A DNA stretch of 27,919 nucleotides, from contig CAYUTF010000029.1 in NCBI GenBank assembly GCA_964447495.1, positions 1 through 27,919 on the forward strand, read 5' to 3'. Origin of the DNA: an uncultured archaeon (GTDB lineage Archaea > Asgardarchaeota > Lokiarchaeia > Sigyniarchaeales > SOKP01). The notes under the pieces were generated by a model that saw nothing but the letters and a program-made list of their open reading frames with translations, searched no databases and was not told where the DNA came from. The translations under genes and the position numbers were made by a program. This document shows, piece by piece, positions 283 to 13,542 of this stretch; position 1 is the first letter of the stretch, and each line of letters starts with the position of its first letter.

Positions 283-1431
283 CTAATAAAAAGGATTATG
301 ATATTGTGGTTTTTCTTCTGATTCAACGAACTTTTCTTTAATTTCTTTATCGATCAAACCCTCGATTTGGCATAAATATTCATATTCCTCTTTTAAACAG
401 AGAGTAATAGCGACACCTTTCTTGTTCATTCTTGAAGTTCTACCGATCCTATGCACATAATTTTCTGGATACATCGGAATATCATAATTAATTACATGCG
501 ATATATCTTCTATATCCAATCCACGTGCAGCGACATCTGTAGCAATAAGCATATTAATCTTATTATCCCTAAATTCCTTCAAAATTGTTTCTCGTTGAAG
601 CTGAGATAAATCTCCAGAAATCTCACCAGCATCATAATGCTTATATTTTAAACTTTTCATTTTTCTGGACAACCATGAAGCAGTTTTCTTGGTATTAGTG
701 AAAACAAGTGCTCTTGTAGGTTTCTCATATTGTAAAATTTTCAGAAATGTTTTGAATTTATTACGAAATCCATCAATTAAGTAATAATACTGCCTTGTAT
801 TTCTTACAGTTAATTCATCTTTGCTCAAATTGAGAAACTTAAATTGATTATTTGAGTAATTCTTAACCAATTCTCTAAATTCATAATGCATAGTAGCTGA
901 AAATAATAAGAATTGATAATTGGATTTAATCTGATTAAGAATATATTTTACATCGGGAGCAAATCCCATATCCCATAGACGATCTGCTTCATCTAAAACA
1001 ACAAATTTAACATTTTTTAGGCGAAGTTTTTTTCTTTTATAGAGATCGATGATCCTACCAGGAGTTCCGATAATTATATTTAGTCCATTTTCTAGTTTGC
1101 GGATCTGGTTATTAATTGAAACGCCACCATAGATTGGATATGCTTTTATCCCATGATTTCCAATATCCTTAAAAACACTATAAATTTGTTTAGCCAATTC
1201 CCTGGTTGGAACTAAAATTAATACTTCATTTTCAAGTTTTTGTACTTTTTCGATTATTGGTAAGATAAAAGCCAACGTCTTACCCGATCCTGTCTTAGCT
1301 TGCGCCATTACATGATTATTATCTAATATTAAAGGTATAGATTTCTGTTGGACAGGAGTAGGGTTTACTATATTTAATTTTTTCATTGCATTAATGCTAC
1401 TTTCACTAATGCCTAATTCTTTAAAATTCAA
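283..1431 (-). CDS. DEAD-box ATP-dependent RNA helicase (core only)
   Basis: Q motif (PTPVQ), AKTGSGKT, PTRELA, GG, TPGRI, DEAD, SAT, ARGLD and HRIGRT all present. TTG start. Confidence 0.97.
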   Translation of the reverse strand: MNFKELGISESSINAMKKLNIVNPTPVQQKSIPLILDNNHVMAQAKTGSGKTLAFILPIIEKVQKLENEVLILVPTRELAKQIYSVFKDIGNHGIKAYPIYGGVSINNQIRKLENGLNIIIGTPGRIIDLYKRKKLRLKNVKFVVLDEADRLWDMGFAPDVKYILNQIKSNYQFLLFSATMHYEFRELVKNYSNNQFKFLNLSKDELTVRNTRQYYYLIDGFRNKFKTFLKILQYEKPTRALVFTNTKKTASWLSRKMKSLKYKHYDAGEISGDLSQLQRETILKEFRDNKINMLIATDVAARGLDIEDISHVINYDIPMYPENYVHRIGRTSRMNKKGVAITLCLKEEYEYLCQIEGLIDKEIKEKFVESEEKPQYHNPFY

Positions 1432-1596: not shown

Positions 1597-3750
1597 TTAA
1601 GCGACCAGAATACGATTAAAAAAGTTATCCAGTTTAGCTAATTTAGTATTGATTATAATTCTCACTTTCTCTGAATTAATCTTAGGATTATTTAATACCA
1701 AATCCTGTACAATAAAATGATACTTCTTCCCTTTTTTTGCTAAAATTCGGTGAATTTCGTTATTTTCATTATATAAGGGAATAGGGAATGAAAAGGGTCT
1801 TTTATGAATATGCCTACTGGATTTAATGATTGCTATATTTCGTGATAACTCTGGAGTATTTAAAATTGCAGATAAATAATAGGCTTCTTCTTGAGAATCA
1901 GTTGAGTAATAATAATTATCTGAACCAATAATTATATTCTTTTTAGAGTTAATTAGTACAGAAGCCTTTAATTTTGAACCACTGGCATTATACACGACAA
2001 TATACTTTTTATTATTAGCCTGTTTGGACATCTTATTCCAATAATTTATGTTTGCGATAAGGGAATCTATCTTACTTGCAGCTTTCTTTTTGGCTTTATA
2101 AACACGATTCATTTCATTATAGAATTTTAAAGCTTTAGGAAATGATTCAAAATATTTCTGGTCAAATTTAAAATCCTTGGTAATTGGTAAAAACACGTTT
2201 CTTTTCTTTTTTATATAAAAGGGAATTAAATCCTTGTTTAAAAAAGTCTTATATCGAAACTGAGGCTCGATTTCTTTATTTGAAAACAAATGATACCAAT
2301 TCTTTTTTGAACGCTTTACTACTTCTTGATCAGAAGAAATAGATAGAGTATTCTCTAGTTTCTGATTAACTTCAAAAAAGACTAGGGTTCGAGGAACCAA
2401 TGTGGCCCCTTGGAAAAATTTATCTTTATACTCACTTTCTCTCATTTCATTTAAAAATTTTAAATCTTGTTCTGGTAAGATGATTTTTACTCCCTCTTCA
2501 TCAATATTGAAGCTATCATAAAAAATTTCTTCTGTAACATGGAGATTTTGATCTAATAATTTAGTTTTAATGGGATATTTTTCAGATATAGGAATTTTAT
2601 TCTTAGTACCAATAAACTCCGCTTTCAAACAAATATGATTGACATTAAAAACATAATTTTTGGGAAAGTCCCATATTTCTAAATTATTAAATATTGGAAA
2701 TAATCGAAATTTATAACAATGATCTCCGTTGAGAACACTTTTAGTCATGACGAAAAATATGGAACCCCCAATTTTTAAGAACTTTGAAGGTATAGCATAG
2801 AAGAAAATTGAAGCTAATTCAATGTGTGTTATATATTGACTTGTTGGTTTTATTTTCAAGGTATCGGATAAATTCCGTATCTTATTTTGATAGTTCTTAT
2901 CGTTTAAATCTTTATAGGTAAGCCAAGGAGGATTTCCAATAACTAAATCAAATGTATTGTTAATCTTTTTTAAATTAAAAGAATTGTTATTAATTAGATT
3001 CTCTGGAAATAATGAATCTATTAAAATAATTGAATTATTTAAATAATGAATATCAAATGAGTCTATAGTATCGTGTATCATAAAAGCTAGGTTAACCTTA
3101 GATGATAAAACTGCCAAAGGATTAATATCAAACCCATACACATTTTTTATCGCCTCTATTTTAGAATCAATGTCGCCCTTTGAATTCAAAATTATGCGAA
3201 TAATCTCAATTAGAAATGTTCCAGAACCACATGATGGATCTAAGATTTTTGAACCATACTTATATAAACTTTCAACCATTTTTTTCGCAAGATTTGGAAA
3301 TGTATAAAACTCACCAATCTTATGCCTTGTTATCATAAAAAAAATTTGTTGATATAGCTCTTGAAATAAGTCTTCTTTTTTTAAATTAATATCCAAGATT
3401 TTATTATTGAAATCTTTTAATAAGGTTGGACTTAATTTTGTCCAATTATAAATCTCAAATTCGCCAAAAATAGTTGTTTTTGGTGAAATAACCATATTGA
3501 GTTTATTTATAACAAATAATTCTAGAAGTAAAGCAAAATAGGTATGCTTTAAGAAAAGCTGAATATTAGCATCTTTACCATAAATATTATGAAAAAAAAG
3601 GTTCCATAAATCATACTTCTCTTGGAACTCCTTCTTATCTTTCTTAACTTCATTTTCAAGAAAGGAAAGAGACTTTTGGAAGAAGCTTGAGTTTAACCCA
3701 AATAACATTCCAATATCTTTAGATGTGATTACTTTTTTGTTCTCGACCAT
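1597..3750 (-). CDS. N6-adenine DNA methyltransferase (gamma class, Type IIG/Eco57I-like MTase-TRD), no evident nuclease domain
   Basis: GEFYT motif X, ILDPSCGSGTFL motif I, YGFDINP, FDLVIGNPPW motif IV, N-terminal helical segment LFLKHTYFALL, and a C-terminal TRD-like region (YYLSAILNT). Confidence 0.9.
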   Translation of the reverse strand: MVENKKVITSKDIGMLFGLNSSFFQKSLSFLENEVKKDKKEFQEKYDLWNLFFHNIYGKDANIQLFLKHTYFALLLELFVINKLNMVISPKTTIFGEFEIYNWTKLSPTLLKDFNNKILDINLKKEDLFQELYQQIFFMITRHKIGEFYTFPNLAKKMVESLYKYGSKILDPSCGSGTFLIEIIRIILNSKGDIDSKIEAIKNVYGFDINPLAVLSSKVNLAFMIHDTIDSFDIHYLNNSIILIDSLFPENLINNNSFNLKKINNTFDLVIGNPPWLTYKDLNDKNYQNKIRNLSDTLKIKPTSQYITHIELASIFFYAIPSKFLKIGGSIFFVMTKSVLNGDHCYKFRLFPIFNNLEIWDFPKNYVFNVNHICLKAEFIGTKNKIPISEKYPIKTKLLDQNLHVTEEIFYDSFNIDEEGVKIILPEQDLKFLNEMRESEYKDKFFQGATLVPRTLVFFEVNQKLENTLSISSDQEVVKRSKKNWYHLFSNKEIEPQFRYKTFLNKDLIPFYIKKKRNVFLPITKDFKFDQKYFESFPKALKFYNEMNRVYKAKKKAASKIDSLIANINYWNKMSKQANNKKYIVVYNASGSKLKASVLINSKKNIIIGSDNYYYSTDSQEEAYYLSAILNTPELSRNIAIIKSSRHIHKRPFSFPIPLYNENNEIHRILAKKGKKYHFIVQDLVLNNPKINSEKVRIIINTKLAKLDNFFNRILVA

Positions 3751-4526: not shown

Positions 4527-7109
4527 CTATTCTACCTTTTTCCATGGTTTCCCATATAAAGTATAACTCGAAATCGCCAAAGAACTTTGGACGTCAATAC
4601 TCATTATACCATCTTCAACAGTTAAATCTTTAGCTTTTTTCAAGGCAAGTTCAGTCAATTTGTTTGCCATACATATTTGACGTGCTTTAAGCAGTGACAC
4701 CCCTTGGCCATAATCCATAAATATATGATCATAGAAATTCTTTGTCAATTCTTTGGTCTCCTCATCAAAAATAGGATAATTATGAGAGATGATGCCAATA
4801 ATATATTCATAATCAAATTTTTCGGCAATATCACCAAAAATTCTTACTACATTGTTCAATTTCTTTCCAACTACATCAAAAAGTTGGGAATTAATAAATA
4901 ATAAGGGTGGTATTTTATGAGGATTTATTTTGATAGCGTTATTTATATCGGATATTGTTACAATTTCATTATCGTTAGTTAATAAGAAACTATTACTTGG
5001 ATTCCATTTAGAATAAAATATATTGCCAACGAGATGAATAATATGATATGCTCCTTGAGATATATGAGTTAAAATCTGTTCTCGGGTAGAATTATAATTA
5101 GATAATATTGTCATTTCATTAACTTCATCTCTATTATTAAAAAAATCCGTGATAAATTTCATTTCTGACAACCCTGCAGCAAATGGAAATATCAATTCTT
5201 TAGATTTAGTTTCCTCATTCCATTTCAAAGGTCCACTGGAATTCATTGAATCGATGATTAAAATATTATATCTTTTATTCGTCTCTCTATTTTGGCTACT
5301 TTCCTCTAAACGGTCAAAACTTATCCCTCCAAGGGAAGGTTCTCCGATAATATATCCGATTGAATACTTTAATAAGAAAAAGTTATTATCATAGACAAGT
5401 TCGAATGGAATAGTCATCTGATCTAAAATAAAATTGATTTCAGGAATCATATTCAATGCTTTTATTTCAAACGTTTTCAAAATTTTCCTTATGGTATTTG
5501 GCAGAAATAAATATAATATTCTCCCAAAATCGGTTAAGGATATTTCATACTCTTTCTTTTTATCGGAAAAAATATCACTATAAATGTCAATTATTTGCAT
5601 ATCATTCCAAAATTCATCTTTAATTCTGCCTTCTAAAATTTCACCAGTATTTGAGATCATTCGGTAAGAAATTAATCCTTTTGAATTAATCCGAAATATT
5701 ATTTGCTTAATAACAAAATTTTCATTTAGTAACTCAGCACTGGGCGTTACAACTTCAAATGAGTAAATTTCTCGCTCCAATGCCTTAGTTTCATTATAAA
5801 ATGTCTCTGGATCCGGAATCATGGAAACTATATTTTTGTCAAGATAAGAAACTAATTTTCGTGCCAATTCAAAATTTTGTTCTTCATAAATCGCCCTATA
5901 AAAGATCATTCTCCAGAAATCTTTTTGATCTAAAGAAAAAAATAACGATTTGAATTGCCATAAGAAATTACACGTGTAAAAGTAATGGTAAATCTGGGCA
6001 TTAGTTTGGGGTGATTTTAAATGAGTATCCAGTTTTTCCAAAGACTGTAATAGGAATTTTTTCTCTTTCATATCTACAAATTTCTTACACGCCTCAACCC
6101 ACAACTCAATGAGGATATTATCATATCCCAGATCAGTTTTATATAGGAATAAATCCTCCAAAAAATCGTAAATTTCAAAGGCTATTTCAAATTTATTTCT
6201 ATTTATTGAAAAATTGATGTATTTTCGTATATAAGTCACAGCATCGCCATATGATTGAAATTTTTGAATTTTCGAAAACATATTTTTAACAATAATTATA
6301 ATCCATGAGAATTCACCGATATAATTCAAATAGGAAACAAGGATTTCTAGATCTTCAATAATACTATTATATGTATTTTCATTTATAATGATTTTATTTA
6401 AATTTGTGAACTCACTTTTTAAATATCCCGGGATTCTATGTGATAAGATTTTTGCCATTTCTTTAATAAATTCATCGGGATCAGCAGTAAGTTGATAATT
6501 GATATTAATATTTTCTAATATAACGTATAAGAATAGAGCTCTTTTTGAGGGATCTAACTTAAATAAGATTTTGCCTAAAACCTCCATACTATTATAAAAA
6601 TATTCTTGTGGAATAACAGACTTTCTGAGATACATTAATAAAATCTGCAGTTCTACTAACTTTAAATGCTCCCCTCTTTCAATAACCTTAACACAATAAG
6701 AATTTATGAACCTTGTAATTCCTCTTGGGGATAAATTCTCCATTTCTATAAACGTCTTTAACAGATTGGTGGCAAAATTATTAAAGAGATAAAAGTCATC
6801 CAGTTTTGATAAAAACGAAAAGAAGCGCTTATATGCATCTATATATCGTATGATATCCACATCTATCTCATCATCTGTTCTCTTTATCAGAGAATTAATA
6901 TACATCCACCATGAGTTTGAAATTATCATTACTAATTGATGCTTTTTCTGAATATCTAACCATTCTGTCTTTTCGATATCAAAATAGAGATCGGTTAAAA
7001 GCCGATCCGCCCATCGATGATTTGCTGTCTGTAGTAATCTTCTGCCTTGAATGATTCTTTTTTGAAAATCTTCTAAAAACTTTTTTTTGGTAATTGCTTT
7101 GACTGACAT
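4527..7109 (-). CDS. helical-repeat (TPR-like) + CHAT-domain protein, probable pseudoprotease
   Basis: CHAT hallmarks: FGRILYLFLP, FILDQMTIPFELV, NSTREQILTHI, YHIIHLVGN, LLFINSQ, NFYDHIF...GVSLLKAR and terminal YTLYGKP. About 440 aa of all-helical-looking N-terminus. Confidence 0.75.
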   Translation of the reverse strand: MSVKAITKKKFLEDFQKRIIQGRRLLQTANHRWADRLLTDLYFDIEKTEWLDIQKKHQLVMIISNSWWMYINSLIKRTDDEIDVDIIRYIDAYKRFFSFLSKLDDFYLFNNFATNLLKTFIEMENLSPRGITRFINSYCVKVIERGEHLKLVELQILLMYLRKSVIPQEYFYNSMEVLGKILFKLDPSKRALFLYVILENININYQLTADPDEFIKEMAKILSHRIPGYLKSEFTNLNKIIINENTYNSIIEDLEILVSYLNYIGEFSWIIIIVKNMFSKIQKFQSYGDAVTYIRKYINFSINRNKFEIAFEIYDFLEDLFLYKTDLGYDNILIELWVEACKKFVDMKEKKFLLQSLEKLDTHLKSPQTNAQIYHYFYTCNFLWQFKSLFFSLDQKDFWRMIFYRAIYEEQNFELARKLVSYLDKNIVSMIPDPETFYNETKALEREIYSFEVVTPSAELLNENFVIKQIIFRINSKGLISYRMISNTGEILEGRIKDEFWNDMQIIDIYSDIFSDKKKEYEISLTDFGRILYLFLPNTIRKILKTFEIKALNMIPEINFILDQMTIPFELVYDNNFFLLKYSIGYIIGEPSLGGISFDRLEESSQNRETNKRYNILIIDSMNSSGPLKWNEETKSKELIFPFAAGLSEMKFITDFFNNRDEVNEMTILSNYNSTREQILTHISQGAYHIIHLVGNIFYSKWNPSNSFLLTNDNEIVTISDINNAIKINPHKIPPLLFINSQLFDVVGKKLNNVVRIFGDIAEKFDYEYIIGIISHNYPIFDEETKELTKNFYDHIFMDYGQGVSLLKARQICMANKLTELALKKAKDLTVEDGIMSIDVQSSLAISSYTLYGKPWKKVE

Positions 7110-7119
7110 GATTTTTTAT

Positions 7120-8307
7120 CTAAGATTCGTTTTCTAATTCATTCTTCTTTTCAGAAACTATATGTGGATTATCAATCCAACCCTTCTTTAATTGGTCCTT
7201 GGCAAATAATACTGAAGCTCCAATCCAAGAAAGATGTTCCCTTCCAGATGCTGCAACCACTTTAATCTTGTCTCTTAATTTCTCAGAGAAATAACTCTGA
7301 AGTTCACTCTGTAATCGCTCACCTAACCCTTGGATTAAGCTTCCACCACCAGATAAAATAATATTTGAAACTAGTTCTTGCCAATTTTCGCGCTCCCAAG
7401 TCTTTACAACCTTAGAAATCGCCTCAGCAAGACTAAAATAATCTACGTGAATCATTCTAGGATTGAATAATGGTTCAGATACTAAAAACCGTTCTTGATT
7501 AATCTTTAAATTAGTTCCATCTGGTAAATCAATTATACGATCATATTTTGTTAAGCCTTCTTTGACTCTTTTTTTTTCTTCTTCACAATTTAGTATGCAT
7601 AAGGACAATTTTTCTTTAATTTCCTTTGCAATAATGGAATCAAGGTAAAAATTTTTTCCACTTCCAATTTTCGATAAAATTAAGTTGAGAATATGATCAC
7701 TTAATTCTTTTCCAGCAATAGGAAATAGATCACGTGCCATAATGTTCGTAAACCCATGAAATATACTAGAAATGTAGGTATATGATTCTCCTAAATTCAC
7801 AATCACTCCACTAGATTTTTGCAATGTAGATAAAATTGCTTGACTTTCTGAGAGAAATAGTATAGAAGGAAAGTGGTATATATCAAAAAATATTTCTTGA
7901 AGCTTTGACTTTCCTAAATCTGAGATATAAAAGGGGGTTAAAATTATCAATGGTTGCTTAAAATGATATTCTTCTGGTATATTAAGTTGAGAATAATAAT
8001 GAAGAAAAAATTTGGAAAGAACATTATAGTTATTTTCTTTTATAAACTCATGCATTCTTAGTATGTTTTGATATTTTAAAGCTGCGTGTCCTACGAGATG
8101 GACTTGATCAGTATCTCCAAGATAGATATCTTCTAACCCATCAATTACGTCTGAAGTGAATAAATAATCAGAAATGTCTACATATACTGTGGGTGCAATA
8201 ATATCGGGAAAATCATCTAAAGCCCATCCCATTCTAAAAGTATTACTCCCAATATCCAATATTAATGGTCGCTTATAATCATTTTTAACAGAAGCCATGA
8301 ATCTCAT
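7120..8307 (-). CDS. divergent actin-family protein (Asgard actin-related protein)
   Basis: Colinear with actin throughout: LILDIGSNTFRMGWALDDFP (phosphate 1), SGVIVNLGES (phosphate 2), IAGKELSDHI, KEIKEKL, LPDG...INQERF...EPLFNP, NIILSGGGSLIQGLGERLQSEL, REHLSWIGASVL. Confidence 0.93.
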   Translation of the reverse strand: MRFMASVKNDYKRPLILDIGSNTFRMGWALDDFPDIIAPTVYVDISDYLFTSDVIDGLEDIYLGDTDQVHLVGHAALKYQNILRMHEFIKENNYNVLSKFFLHYYSQLNIPEEYHFKQPLIILTPFYISDLGKSKLQEIFFDIYHFPSILFLSESQAILSTLQKSSGVIVNLGESYTYISSIFHGFTNIMARDLFPIAGKELSDHILNLILSKIGSGKNFYLDSIIAKEIKEKLSLCILNCEEEKKRVKEGLTKYDRIIDLPDGTNLKINQERFLVSEPLFNPRMIHVDYFSLAEAISKVVKTWERENWQELVSNIILSGGGSLIQGLGERLQSELQSYFSEKLRDKIKVVAASGREHLSWIGASVLFAKDQLKKGWIDNPHIVSEKKNELENES

Positions 8308-9225: not shown

Positions 9226-9630
9226 TTATTCCAGCGAAAGTACTTCAACTTTTATAGCATTTCCTTCCTTCATTAACTTCTGCTTCAATTCATCGATCGA
9301 AAAATCAGGGCTTTCCGAGATTACAGTCCATACCGCAGTTTTATCCTTCTCAACTATTACTGCTTCACTATATATCATACTTAACCCATAATCACCAAAC
9401 ATCGAAGCTAATTTAGCTAATGCGCCAGGTATATCTGCCATAGTGATTTTAAGTTTAATCGGAACCTTTTCATCGCCCAACCCTATAGGAGATATTCGTA
9501 TTTCCTTGGTTTCCGAGTCACTCACCATCATAAGCTGAGAATTGGTAGTAAGCCCAAGACTTTTTCGAATGATCTGAGGAATTACAATCCGTCCTCGGTT
9601 ATCAATGGTGAGAATTTTAATTTCTTTCAT
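9226..9630 (-). CDS. AbrB/MazE/SpoVT-family DNA-binding domain fused to ACT domain
   Basis: TIDNRGRIVIPQIIRKSLGL (AbrB signature) followed by ITMADIPGALAKLASMFGDYGLSM (ACT signature). Confidence 0.9.
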   Translation of the reverse strand: MKEIKILTIDNRGRIVIPQIIRKSLGLTTNSQLMMVSDSETKEIRISPIGLGDEKVPIKLKITMADIPGALAKLASMFGDYGLSMIYSEAVIVEKDKTAVWTVISESPDFSIDELKQKLMKEGNAIKVEVLSLE

Positions 9631-9840: not shown

Positions 9841-12066
9841 TTATTCCTTATGTGCTTTGAGCTTTACTGTTAAATCGCGTGCTCTCTTAGAATACCAGAT
9901 CAAAAGCTCACCAGCATCTTCAGGCTTGAAATACTCGCCACCGCATAATTGTGCTGCGCGGGTCATTAACTCATCATCAGGGTTTCCCAAACCAACTATA
10001 TATATTACGACATTTGGGTTATCTGCGAACATTTTTATTGCTTTAAAGAAATCGTCTCCATCGGTTGGAACACCATCGGTAAGAAGGATTATCATAGATG
10101 GTTGATTTGGACTAATTCTATTAAACTCTGTAAGAACTTGATATGCCTTTACCATAGCTTGTCCCATATTCGTAGATTGGCCATACGCATTTCCTATACG
10201 ATCTACAATTAAACGAGCAGCTTCTTCAAGAACACCTTTTTTACCGCTAGCAGAATCCATATAGTAGCCTTCTTGAAACGGTAATATTTGAGCTTCATCG
10301 GCAAACCGTATAACGGACACTTTCTCACCAAATCCACGGCCAACTTTTTCACTTAGAAAGAGCACTGCTGCAAATGCCGCAGAAATTCTCCGCGGAATAT
10401 TGATACCTGCTTTAAAATTCTTTAGGAATTCTTGAATTTCTCGTGATTCCATTGCCGCTTTGATACCTTCTATAGCGGGAGCGATGTTGGTCACAAACAC
10501 ATCACGTGCCATCATCGAGCGGCTTATATCTATGATGAGAATTGCGTTAAATGGTATTAATCCTGTTGGTGTAAGATTTATTGTCGTATTCTCGGTGATT
10601 TGTGCGAGAATATCCCCTGTTAAATCGGGTGTTGTATTTAGAATTGAGCAAGCGATATTTACCGCATTCCATCGTAATTTGATTCCTTTGAAGATAATAT
10701 AATTCGAAAGCCATCCTTTCAATGAATCAACGTTCTGTCGCGCAGTGCTGATAATTTCCCACATATTTTCTCCCGAAATCGGATTAATTCCTAAAGACAC
10801 ACTTTGAAGGGGAATGATTGGTCGTAAGTTTTTATACACTTTTACTTCAAAACTACCAATACCAGAGGCTTCTAAAATCTCACTATCAATAATGATGGTA
10901 TTATTTGGAGCAGATTCAAGAATCTCTGCTTTAGCAGCACCGATTGCACCAGTAAGCTCATCTTCAAAAGCAAGTACATCATCTTGGTTAATCGAGAGCG
11001 TATATTGGGTACGTGGACTCACTAAACAATAACCTAGCAAATTTGGTTGCGACTGCACTTCCAGCATCATTTCAGAAGCTTTTTGAATGGGTGGTTCAGT
11101 TGAATAGACTACAATTTGTTGAGCTTGTATGTTTGTATCTTGTTTCGTATCGCGGCTCATTCTGATCTCAGTAGGGTTAATTAGAGCTTGGCTGACTCGA
11201 GCTGATCCTACTGATCGTGTGAGTGGATCCTCCCATGCTACAAGCAATCCAGGAGCAAGTCCTAATTGCTGAATTACAGTGCTACTGAGCTGAATCTTGC
11301 CACCTTCAATACCATTATCTACAATGGGATTTAAAATAATCCCTCCTTTTTGATTTTGAAGGGTATATATATCAATTTGATTTGAATAAGGTGTAGGTGA
11401 TGGAGCTTCTATCCCCATATCTTGACCTGGCATAGGTGGGACTTGTTGAGGAGGTGGTGTTGGAACCATTTGAGGCTGAGGTGTGGGTGAAGGTGGTCGA
11501 GGCATAGGAGTGACTTGTGGAATAGAGGCTTGGGTGGGTTTTGGTGCTGGTGGAGGCGTAGGCTGCGGCATTGGAGGCTGAAAAGGTTGAGATATAGGTG
11601 TTGGCTGAGTTGCTGGTTCGGGAGGTATTTGGGGAAGTGGTGCTGCTCTTGGTTGGGGCATGGGCCTAGAAGGTGCCATCTGAGGTGGAGGAGTAGGTAA
11701 AGGCGTTAAAGATGAATCTGTAGCAGAGCGAACTTGAGGCTGAGGTACTGGAACAGGGCGAGGTGATGGAACCTTTGGAATTTGAAGTTTAGGTGGAGCT
11801 AATCCAGTACTACTGACTGGACGAAGGATCAATTCTACTCCCGAAAATTCTAAGGCGTCCACAATATTCTTTGAGATTTGAGCAGCAAAATCTAACACCA
11901 TATTTGAAATTTCTACAACAGCATTAATTTTTTTAGCATTATCAGGATTTTCGACCTCAATGGAAGTGCCATTTGAAACATGTAATTTCGTTGCATTTTC
12001 TTGGCAGATTACTACTTTATTTGTAGAGCTTTCACTTACATCGACAAATATTTTTAATTCACTCAT
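9841..12066 (-). CDS. multidomain protein: Cdc48-N-like double-psi barrel, proline-rich linker, two more barrels + Cdc48 Nc-like subdomain, C-terminal vWA domain
   Basis: vWA MIDAS motif intact (AILIIDISRSM, STNMGQAM, IILLTDG, YIVGLG, CGGEYF). Three similar segments resemble the Cdc48/VAT N-terminal barrel (VVICQENATKLHVSNG, IQLSSTVIQQLGLAPG, CLVSPRTQYTLSINQD). About 140 aa P/Q-rich tract. Confidence 0.8.
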   Translation of the reverse strand: MSELKIFVDVSESSTNKVVICQENATKLHVSNGTSIEVENPDNAKKINAVVEISNMVLDFAAQISKNIVDALEFSGVELILRPVSSTGLAPPKLQIPKVPSPRPVPVPQPQVRSATDSSLTPLPTPPPQMAPSRPMPQPRAAPLPQIPPEPATQPTPISQPFQPPMPQPTPPPAPKPTQASIPQVTPMPRPPSPTPQPQMVPTPPPQQVPPMPGQDMGIEAPSPTPYSNQIDIYTLQNQKGGIILNPIVDNGIEGGKIQLSSTVIQQLGLAPGLLVAWEDPLTRSVGSARVSQALINPTEIRMSRDTKQDTNIQAQQIVVYSTEPPIQKASEMMLEVQSQPNLLGYCLVSPRTQYTLSINQDDVLAFEDELTGAIGAAKAEILESAPNNTIIIDSEILEASGIGSFEVKVYKNLRPIIPLQSVSLGINPISGENMWEIISTARQNVDSLKGWLSNYIIFKGIKLRWNAVNIACSILNTTPDLTGDILAQITENTTINLTPTGLIPFNAILIIDISRSMMARDVFVTNIAPAIEGIKAAMESREIQEFLKNFKAGINIPRRISAAFAAVLFLSEKVGRGFGEKVSVIRFADEAQILPFQEGYYMDSASGKKGVLEEAARLIVDRIGNAYGQSTNMGQAMVKAYQVLTEFNRISPNQPSMIILLTDGVPTDGDDFFKAIKMFADNPNVVIYIVGLGNPDDELMTRAAQLCGGEYFKPEDAGELLIWYSKRARDLTVKLKAHKE

Positions 12067-12107: not shown

Positions 12108-12497
12108 TTATCTAATAGGATAACGCACACCTATCTCTTTGGCATAATAGCGAAATACAGATACAATTTTCCCTAAATCTTCGGTTTTTCTGCTTGCCCC
12201 CATCAGAAAAAAGCGTCCTGCGGCACTCAGAATAATAAATGCATTATCTCCTCTTAATACTACTTCAAGTAAATTAAGATATCCTAATGCATCAATAGAA
12301 TCTTGACCACTCTGCATTACAACAGCACTTAGGCTGGAGAATAAATCGGGGTCCACATCATAATCTGGTATGCATGAAAATGCAAGTCGCAAGCCATCAC
12401 GTGTTACAAGAGCAAGAGCCTCGAGTTCTGTGTGCTCTGTGATGTTTCCAAGAAAATTTGATAGACTATGGGCTTCCTCTGGGGTTAGATCACTCAT
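12108..12497 (-). CDS. roadblock/LC7 (MglB-like) domain protein
   Basis: Helix, then LEALALVTRDGLRLA, DPDLFSSLSA helix, LLEVVLRGDNAFIILSAAG, and DLGKI terminal helix. Typical roadblock pattern, 129 aa. Confidence 0.88.
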   Translation of the reverse strand: MSDLTPEEAHSLSNFLGNITEHTELEALALVTRDGLRLAFSCIPDYDVDPDLFSSLSAVVMQSGQDSIDALGYLNLLEVVLRGDNAFIILSAAGRFFLMGASRKTEDLGKIVSVFRYYAKEIGVRYPIR

Positions 12498-12684: not shown

Positions 12685-13542
12685 TTATTTTCCCTCTAAT
12701 TGAGTTTTTATTTGATCTTTTAAAATTTCTTTTTTCGATTTATATTCGATTTTGGCATCGGTTGGTTGTCCAATACGTTTTAAAAATTCTATTGCTAGAA
12801 TTTTACCATTTTCTGACAAAATCCGTGGAGAATAATCTTCAGCAAAATAAATTCCTTCAGGGACAGAACCGACTTTAGATATTTCTTTGGTGACTTGTTT
12901 TTCTCCTAAAAAGGTTTGCACTTTTTCAACTACAGAATAAGCATGATTTCCAATAATTATTAACTCTCTCTCGAAACCATCAGGCATTTTAATTTCTTCT
13001 AACTTCTGCATGATCTCTTCAAAATTTATATGCGTTTGATCTTGCATTAAAGTTGAAAATGACTCATCTCCTCGGTATAACGGACCAGTATTTTGAGAAA
13101 TTCTATCTTTACTTCCCGCAATATTCATTCCTGCTGCTGGTTCTGGAATTCCAAAAGGATCTTTTTCCCTAAGAGGGTGCACGGCAGGAACAGGAGGGCC
13201 TTTAGGTTTTGCAGGTGCTTCATGAGCTTTAATTTCTTTTGCAATACCGCTTTCTGTTTTTCCACCTATTAATTTAATAAAATCGGGGTCTTCATCTCCC
13301 TCATCTTGGGGGACAACTGCGTAATGCATTCCAACCTGACCTCTAATTTCTTGGCTTCTTTTGGCTCCAATAAATTTAGATCTCACGTTACTTTCCAAAC
13401 CTTTCCAAAGAAAAACCTTTCTTAACTCATCAGCGACGAGTACATAGCATTCATCACTTTTTAATACATCTTTAATAGAACCTTCTGAAAACACTTCTGT
13501 GGTCGTTCCATCTGGATTAATAAGAAAAACTTGATTTCCCAT
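12685..13542 (-). CDS. single gelsolin-domain protein with Pro-rich linker and C-terminal domain of unknown function
   Basis: LKSDECYVL...KVFLWKGLES...QDEGDEDPDFIKLIGG matches the gelsolin repeat consensus (L.S.DCFIL..IYVW.G..S...EG.E...F). Confidence 0.9.
   Translation of the reverse strand: MGNQVFLINPDGTTTEVFSEGSIKDVLKSDECYVLVADELRKVFLWKGLESNVRSKFIGAKRSQEIRGQVGMHYAVVPQDEGDEDPDFIKLIGGKTESGIAKEIKAHEAPAKPKGPPVPAVHPLREKDPFGIPEPAAGMNIAGSKDRISQNTGPLYRGDESFSTLMQDQTHINFEEIMQKLEEIKMPDGFERELIIIGNHAYSVVEKVQTFLGEKQVTKEISKVGSVPEGIYFAEDYSPRILSENGKILAIEFLKRIGQPTDAKIEYKSKKEILKDQIKTQLEGK

Follow-up and report, generated by a model that had tools for sequence, protein, structure and literature searches.

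A motor-less Cdc48-type N domain–vWA protein of Lokiarchaeia and its putative ligase–hydrolase partners

What does a Cdc48-type N-terminal (N) domain do in a protein that has no ATPase module, and with which partners might it work? This question is raised by a single open reading frame (ORF) of 741 amino acids (aa), at 9841..12066 on the minus strand of contig CAYUTF010000029.1 from an uncultured lokiarchaeon (assembly GCA_964447495.1). The window analysed here is the whole stretch of 27,919 nucleotides, and its G+C content is low, about 0.27-0.44. We found that the encoded protein belongs to a motor-less family, here called Cdc48N-vWA, that appears to be restricted to Asgard archaea, and that it represents the long form found in Lokiarchaeia. 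The conserved core of the family (residues 327-741) is a p97-type N domain joined directly to a von Willebrand factor A (vWA) domain with a complete metal site, while the long form consists of this core and two further double-psi beta-barrels, one of them carried on a floppy Pro-rich tether of about 144 residues. The original prediction, made from the DNA letters, had described three Cdc48-N-like barrels, an Nc-like segment and a vWA domain without an AAA ATPase, and this architecture was confirmed by structure and sequence comparison. The predicted absence of Walker motifs also held, as a pattern search of the 741 residues found neither Walker A nor Walker B (hhhhDE), and Pfam over the whole protein returned vWA families alone and no AAA+ family. 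Both domains are classic eukaryote-style adaptor modules, and here the nearest archaeal relatives of eukaryotes combine them in one protein that lacks a motor.

The complete N domain consists of barrel 3, its Nn lobe (residues 327-415; 10822..11088), and an Nc lobe in the form of a beta-clam (residues 416-505; 10552..10821); these and all other features of the window described below are on the minus strand. Residues 225-505 were folded by AlphaFold2 (AF2) with a 62-sequence alignment, giving a mean predicted local distance difference test score (pLDDT) of 94.7 and a predicted TM-score (pTM) of 0.82. The top 50 Foldseek rows for this model were all N domains (NSF, Pex1/Pex6, p97/Cdc48, SPATA5, VAT, and MSMEG_0858), with expectation values (E) of about 1e-9 to 2e-8 and, for the p97 N domain 3qq7, a target-normalised TM-score (TMt) of 0.74. 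VIA aligned residues 328-503 (104-279 in the numbering of the model) with residues 19-190 of p97-N (5b6c_A) at Z 17.1, with a root-mean-square deviation (rmsd) of 2.6 Å over 165 aligned residues. In a wide VIA search of 48,161 chains, independent of Foldseek, the matches that covered both lobes were the N domains of CDC48A (Z 15.8), PEX1 (15.7), NSF (15.2), Sec18 (14.9), Pex6 (13.4-13.8), and VAT (13.4), followed by UFD1 (12.3), MSMEG_0858 (12.2), and DEPDC5 (10.6 and 9.4). Since both lobes align to p97-N, barrel 3 and the Nc-like segment together make up a whole two-lobed N domain, and what had been proposed as an Nc-like segment is its beta-clam lobe.

The two additional barrels precede this domain. 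Barrel 1 (residues 1-84; 11815..12066) was modelled by AF2 from residues 1-90 with 21 sequences (pLDDT 85.2), and Foldseek matched it to the N barrel of p97 (3hu3_B; query-normalised TM-score, TMq, 0.82; rmsd 1.5 Å; 84 columns) and, with a TMq and a TMt of 0.79 each, to the double-psi beta-barrel that was isolated from a VCP-like ATPase (7dg9). It is followed by the Pro-rich tether (residues 85-228; 11383..11814), recognised by its composition, with 36.8% Pro over 144 aa; among the 116 homologues with a barrel 1, the tether spans 81-213 aa (median 150.5), and the median proportion of Pro in it is 0.36. Barrel 2 (residues 229-326; 11089..11382) is a double-psi beta-barrel with an N-terminal helix. 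In the wide VIA search, barrel 2 alone matched the double-psi barrel of formate dehydrogenase N (1kqf_A) at Z 9.0 over model residues 1-99, that of Pol IV (7eu0_A) at Z 8.8, and that of a plastid RNA polymerase (8w9z_C) at Z 8.1. Thus, the barrel placed by the original prediction at residues ~1-84 and the two tandem units placed after the Pro tract all model as double-psi beta-barrels.

The sequence relationship among the barrels was assessed with hhalign, using column slices of a 118-sequence alignment as inputs. Barrels 2 and 3 aligned with a probability of 98.0% (E 2.4e-13, 83 columns), barrels 1 and 3 with 97.2% (E 4e-11), and barrels 1 and 2 with 95.0% (E 3.5e-8), as compared to 0.3-1.4% for each barrel against the Nc slice, which served as control. 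Judged by these profile alignments, the three barrels are homologous to one another. The family profile gave weak but repeated matches to PDB chains of VAT-N and of VAT/Cdc48-derived or designed double-psi barrels (7di0, E 9.9e-4; 7dbo, 0.0027; 1cz4, 0.003). Sub-threshold CDC48_N matches occur in 16 of the 62 alignment members (best 1.1e-4), and Molydop_binding matches in another 19 (best 1.8e-5). Molydop_binding is itself a double-psi barrel family, and the fold match of barrel 2 to 1kqf agrees with these hits. For the 741-aa protein and its pieces, the Pfam families CDC48_N and CDC48_2 gave no match even at E<=10, and the domain pieces returned nothing relevant from Pfam at that threshold. 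The matches of residues 225-505 and 1-90 to PDB sequences in phmmer were at chance level alone (E 0.36-0.54), and an ESM Atlas look-up of residues 327-741 gave no usable match.

The C-terminal part of the core (residues 506-741; 9844..10551) is a vWA domain, with Pfam matches above cut-off to VWA (PF00092; E 1.2e-10, 42.3 bits against 23.8) and VWA_2 (PF13519; E 4.8e-8, 34 bits against 27). The family profile also matched solved vWA chains (4rck at E 8.7e-12, 8s05, and 5a8j) in a range of 8.7e-12 to 3.1e-10. By pattern search, all five ligands of the metal ion-dependent adhesion site (MIDAS) are present: the DxSxS motif D513-I-S515-R-S517 (10516..10530) is completed by T632 and D664. These positions are invariant in the 16-sequence alignment A5 (columns D289, S291, S293, T408, and D440, its numbering beginning at residue 225). 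The intact MIDAS that had been read from the sequence is therefore borne out. The insert after the first motif, DISRS, shows in the VWA_2 match, where 157 residues face 105 profile positions, an excess of about 50.

How widely is this architecture distributed? Over residues 225-741, at least 120 clusters were found at 81% identity or more, all of them called “VWA domain-containing” or “hypothetical”, and the nearest named records of the homologues are metagenome-assembled genomes (MAGs) of Promethearchaeota/Lokiarchaeia-type Asgard archaea. The protein is more than 80% identical across Lokiarchaeia, which points to an important and unstudied job. Searching residues 225-505 by phmmer against 1.84 billion representatives, with no length filter, returned 30 proteins at E<=1e-3; 19 of these were scanned with Pfam, and a vWA family was present in 16 and an AAA family in none. 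In the profile search, the E value drops from 4e-78 to 4e-11, the point at which generic bacterial vWA proteins start. Short forms of 420-500 aa, consisting of one barrel, the Nc lobe, and the vWA domain, stand in records named as Thor-, Frey-, or Jordarchaeal, apart from one under Korarchaeota. At E<=1e-20, a match was present in 252 of 400 genomes of the phylum (64 of the 90 high-quality genomes), while whole genome families had none, for example f13 (0/31), f19 (0/19), and f15 (0/12); here and below, f1, f3 and so on are labels of genome families within the phylum searched. On these searches, the Cdc48N-vWA family appears to be restricted to Asgard archaea. Orthologues 78-84% identical to the protein also stand on three contigs filed under bacterial MAGs (Nanopelagicaceae and Thermodesulfobacteriota; L038, L045, L051), and these are probably mis-binned Asgard contigs. 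The available text of the literature on Asgard and archaeal vWA and Cdc48-type proteins holds no description of a Cdc48N-vWA architecture that we could find.

Among the short forms, three members (P0141, P0144, and P0149) carry an extra N-terminal stretch that can be aligned among them. In P0144 this stretch matches the ubiquitin-like family YukD (Pfam E 1.2e-6), which places a ubiquitin-like domain in the same chain as a Cdc48-type N domain.

An N domain and a MIDAS-vWA domain in a protein with no catalytic or ATPase motif are most naturally read as a non-enzymatic adaptor, and gene context offers candidates for its partners. We examined 20 distant loci outside family f1, drawn by hand and not at random from f3-f8, f16, f18, f20, f21, and f31, with 8 kb fetched. 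An Amidohydro_2-like gene lies at most 8 kb away in 13 of them, and a GCS2-like gene in 11. We refer to these as the hydrolase and the ligase, which are working names because the family matches behind them are weak or sub-threshold. In two f3 loci (L123 and L124), genes for YjeF, a gelsolin-like protein, Roadblock, Cdc48N-vWA, a companion protein X, the ligase, and the hydrolase follow one another on one strand, with small ORFs, one of them RNase H, between the Cdc48N-vWA gene and X. Both gene sets are also found within 10 kb in L146 (family f1, genus g2) and in L156 (f3). In the genome studied here, the genes for X, the ligase homologue, and the hydrolase homologue (627, 565, and 512 aa, respectively) form a cluster on contig C45, with the hydrolase at 6749-8284 of locus L139 on the minus strand, and the Cdc48N-vWA gene is on C29. 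When 20 loci were centred on the hydrolase instead (16 from f1, three from f3, and one from f4), the ligase stood alongside in 19 and X in 18.

Two further lines of evidence point in the same direction. In locus L126, an ORF of 891 aa next to the pair aligns over 93 columns of its N part with the hydrolase (E 2e-5) and over 321 columns of its C part, where the DxSxS motif is lost, with the Cdc48N-vWA protein (E 4e-13), a fusion which argues that the hydrolase and the Cdc48N-vWA protein touch. Hydrolase and Cdc48N-vWA genes are, moreover, both present in families f1-f8, f20, f21, and f30, and both absent from 17 families (103 genomes). The best-supported context is an apparently Asgard-restricted putative ligase–hydrolase module, accompanied in Lokiarchaeia by the gelsolin-like and Roadblock genes.

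Several observations weigh against this reading. Neither enzyme is nearby in seven of the 20 distant loci. Three of these (L116, L119, and L131) are second or third paralogues in genomes where another copy is linked; the others are the divergent copy L129, a single f4 locus, and the two f18 loci. At the thresholds applied, the distributions of the two genes disagree in f16 and f18. The choice of threshold explains part of the f16 mismatch, since L127 and L128 each have an adjacent homologue of the hydrolase at E ~1e-26. In this genome and in most of f1 the enzyme set is unlinked, and when it does share a contig with the Cdc48N-vWA gene the distance is 8.5 to ~100 kb. The enzyme assignments are themselves faint: the hydrolase of this genome scores 25.7 bits against a Pfam cut-off of 26.4, its ligase has no Pfam match at E<=0.01, the GCS2 matches of ligase orthologues cover about 50 of 291 profile positions, and neither enzyme of this genome matched a PDB sequence at E<=0.01. 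Related genomes are also not independent samples, and the distant loci were of our own choosing.

Taking both sides together, the best explanation that we can offer, held at about even confidence, is that the protein may be a motor-less docking protein for a putative hydrolase–ligase partner set, possibly at a cytoskeleton or GTPase platform. From gene order, shared distribution, and the fusion, we infer that this set would comprise the Amidohydro_2-like metal hydrolase and the putative GCS2-like carboxylate-amine ligase with its companion X. The Cdc48N-vWA protein would be the non-catalytic docking subunit, in which the MIDAS metal could clamp an acidic residue of one partner, while the N-domain cleft and the extra barrels might take hold of other partners by their peptide motifs or by small domains of the beta-grasp or platform type, and the tethered barrel 1 would extend the reach. 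Ligase and hydrolase might then add an amide-bond modification to a target presented by the adaptor and take it off again. If the ligase–hydrolase link is real, it would represent an undescribed reversible modification system. The weakest step is the field of action, which may be the cytoskeleton or a GTPase platform because the gene, in this taxonomic order of Lokiarchaeia, is probably co-transcribed with the Roadblock and gelsolin-like genes and has an actin-like gene as a neighbour.

It was originally proposed that the protein is a stand-alone adaptor which links substrates or the cytoskeleton to an unfoldase encoded elsewhere (Cdc48, PAN, or MoxR), with the barrels binding substrates or cofactors and the vWA domain binding the AAA+ ring. 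Cytosolic MIDAS-intact vWA proteins often partner AAA+ machines, and N domains bind cofactors. Also in its favour, a genome-wide CDC48_N scan found four other genes, canonical Cdc48 homologues of 751-776 aa, and the ubiquitin-like YukD domain is found by alignment at the N terminus of three distant members, with a Pfam match in P0144 alone. However, no AAA+ gene was seen among the Pfam-scanned neighbours in the window and 18 distant loci (the 80 close loci described below were searched for homologues of window genes alone), no MoxR-type ATPase or FHA partner is among the annotated neighbour genes, and no form fused to an AAA module occurs among the 30 representatives, 19 of them scanned with Pfam. 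Of the 400 Asgard genomes searched, moreover, 148 lack the family, and its distribution tracks that of the hydrolase. The proposal of a non-enzymatic adaptor is reasonable, while its tie to Cdc48, PAN, or MoxR found no counterpart in gene context, the four Cdc48 genes being on other contigs (C4, C32, C30, and C95). We consider the unfoldase link very unlikely.

The immediate surroundings of the gene could point to a different role. A Roadblock/LC7 gene (12108..12497; Pfam Robl_LC7 E 5e-6, 26.6 bits against a cut-off of 23) lies 41 nt upstream of the Cdc48N-vWA gene, and upstream of Roadblock there is a gelsolin-like gene (12685..13542) that matches the Lokiarchaeota 2DGel protein 7whg_G in phmmer (E 1.4e-7) but Gelsolin in Pfam at no better than E 0.02. 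Directly downstream of the Cdc48N-vWA gene is an AbrB-ACT gene (9226..9630, 134 aa) whose N-terminal domain is of the AbrB/MazE type (E 1.7e-5) and which also matches ACT weakly; the swapped-hairpin barrel of AbrB is related to double-psi barrels. Three genes downstream is an actin-family gene (7120..8307, 395 aa; Pfam Actin E 2.6e-48), whose best PDB sequence matches, at about E 1e-35, are HC1 actin, eukaryotic actins, and Arp1, and which looks like a divergent actin-related protein by its sequence. It is followed by a CHAT gene (4527..7109, 860 aa) with a C-terminal caspase-like CHAT domain (E 1.4e-6) behind a long N-terminal region that has no assignment. Farther along are genes for an N6-adenine methylase of the Eco57I/MmeI type (1597..3750, 717 aa) and a DEAD-box helicase (283..1431). 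One metatranscriptome run contains three short contigs of 151-245 nt with at least 99% likeness. Two of them fall in the Cdc48N-vWA gene (11386-11782) and one in the AbrB-ACT gene, which is too little for a claim of transcription or of an operon.

The conservation of this order was evaluated by tblastn with the window's own genes in 80 close loci, which are from related species (75-86% identity in the match) and many of which are ended by contig ends. With strand and order conserved, YjeF was present in 61 loci, the gelsolin-like gene in 69, Roadblock in 71, AbrB-ACT in 64, a 247-aa coiled-coil protein in 63, the actin-like gene in 63, and CHAT in 61. The methylase and helicase genes were in none of the 80, so the conserved order stops there. 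In one f6 locus (L133), the small gene directly upstream of the orthologue (10073-10510, minus strand) is at the position that Roadblock has in the window, and it has a weak Longin match (E 0.0034, below cut-off).

These neighbours might mean that the protein is a cytoskeleton adaptor in its own right, which would bind actin-like filaments or the gelsolin-like regulator without involvement of the ligase and hydrolase genes. Consistent with this is the retention of the gelsolin-like, Roadblock, Cdc48N-vWA, AbrB-ACT, coiled-coil, actin-like, and CHAT genes on one strand in 61-71 of the 80 loci, together with a gelsolin-like homologue near the hydrolase–adaptor pair in a distant class (L115, E 1e-33). 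The 80 loci are close relatives, however (at least 75% identity), so their conserved order may be mere inheritance, and outside f1 we saw none of the actin-like, coiled-coil, or AbrB-ACT neighbours. We regard this reading as unlikely.

The order of domains in the core raises another possibility, since it recalls DEPDC5/Iml1, a subunit of GATOR1. According to a review (PMC8534245), the N-terminal domain (NTD) of DEPDC5 resembles the N domain of Sec18/NSF, and the SABA domain that follows it resembles a Sec23 domain. The protein could then be a scaffold of a proto-GATOR1 type, its core being the archaeal counterpart of the DEPDC5/Iml1 NTD-SABA unit that organises Roadblock/longin platform proteins which regulate Rag/Arf-like GTPases. 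The shared order, NSF-N-like then Sec23-like (PMC8534245), speaks for this, and residues 3-167 of the DEPDC5 NTD align to both lobes of our model (9o5a_B, Z 10.6, rmsd 3.9 Å, 157 aligned; 9xzy_H, Z 9.4). So do the Roadblock gene, 41 nt away and kept in 71 of 80 loci, and the Longin-like small gene of L133. Proteins of Asgard archaea that resemble NPRL2 and FLCN are reported by Liu et al. (bioRxiv 10.1101/2020.10.19.343400), who name no Depdc5 homologue in the available text.

Rag-type GTPases also occur in this genome. Beside the hydrolase cluster on contig C45 (L139, 3411-6699), two genes encode Gtr1/RagA-Arf-like GTPases of 293 and 493 aa, and a third, of 232 aa, matches folliculin weakly (E 9.5e-4), which would fit a GATOR1-like setting. 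We rejected a conserved Rag-GTPase linkage: orthologues of Rag493, the folliculin-like gene, and Rag293 recur in two of the 20 hydrolase loci (L142 and L152), and three more loci have no more than matches of about 30% identity.

Other results stand against a GATOR1-type scaffold. The N domain is far closer to those of p97, PEX1, and NSF (Z 15-17) than to DEPDC5, which is the weakest of the two-lobed VIA matches. Pfam IML1 (PF12257) has no match in this genome at E<=10 and is not among the 25 families shown of the 34 that match the 62 alignment members, and the search of the profile against PDB yields no DEPDC5 chain. The protein stops at residue 741 after its vWA domain, and SHEN, DEP, and CTD parts are missing. 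No sequence signal and the weakest two-lobed match mean that the resemblance to DEPDC5 is one of layout. As to whether the architecture belongs to an already characterised family, the order of domains is that of DEPDC5/Iml1 in the available description, and membership by sequence, through IML1, was not found. We judge the scaffold reading decidedly unlikely.

A bolder version would join it to the ligase–hydrolase module. The core would be a surviving archaeal relative of DEPDC5/Iml1 NTD-SABA and, with the Roadblock/longin-like neighbour and the ligase–hydrolase pair, would form an Asgard platform coupling a reversible amide-bond modification to GTPase or cytoskeleton control. This is highly improbable, but if the core were such a relative, part of the GATOR1 architecture would be older than eukaryotes. 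Were the resemblance due to descent, it would also provide a prokaryotic starting point for a nutrient-signalling scaffold, for which none is so far in print in the available text of the literature searched. In their main text, two structure-based Asgard surveys make no mention of DEPDC5, GATOR, vWA, von Willebrand, Cdc48, or Sec23.

Among known systems, three stand nearest to the Cdc48N-vWA protein. The N domains of Cdc48/p97/VAT, NSF/Sec18, and PEX1/PEX6, and UT3 of UFD1, have the same two-lobed fold as residues 328-503, whereas barrels 1 and 2 are extra copies of the Nn lobe that precede the N domain, and the Pfam models CDC48_N and CDC48_2 of Cdc48-type N domains fail to reach the protein. 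In Cdc48, p97, and VAT there is an AAA+ D1 or D2 module with Walker motifs; the protein described here has neither, and a vWA domain comes after its N domain. With the MIDAS-type cytosolic vWA adaptors (archaeal ArnB/VWA2, 5a8j; 4rck; 8s05; and the MoxR partners) it shares the vWA fold and the complete DxSxS...T...D site, but it differs from them in the fusion to Cdc48-type N barrels and in having about 50 additional residues behind the first MIDAS motif. DEPDC5/Iml1 (Sea1) of GATOR1/SEACIT, as described in the available sources, has the same order of an NSF-N-like domain with a Sec23-trunk-like alpha/beta domain directly behind it, and neither protein has an ATPase. Unlike DEPDC5/Iml1, to which it bears no sequence signal, the Cdc48N-vWA protein has as its conserved gene partners not NPRL2/3 but a putative ligase and hydrolase.

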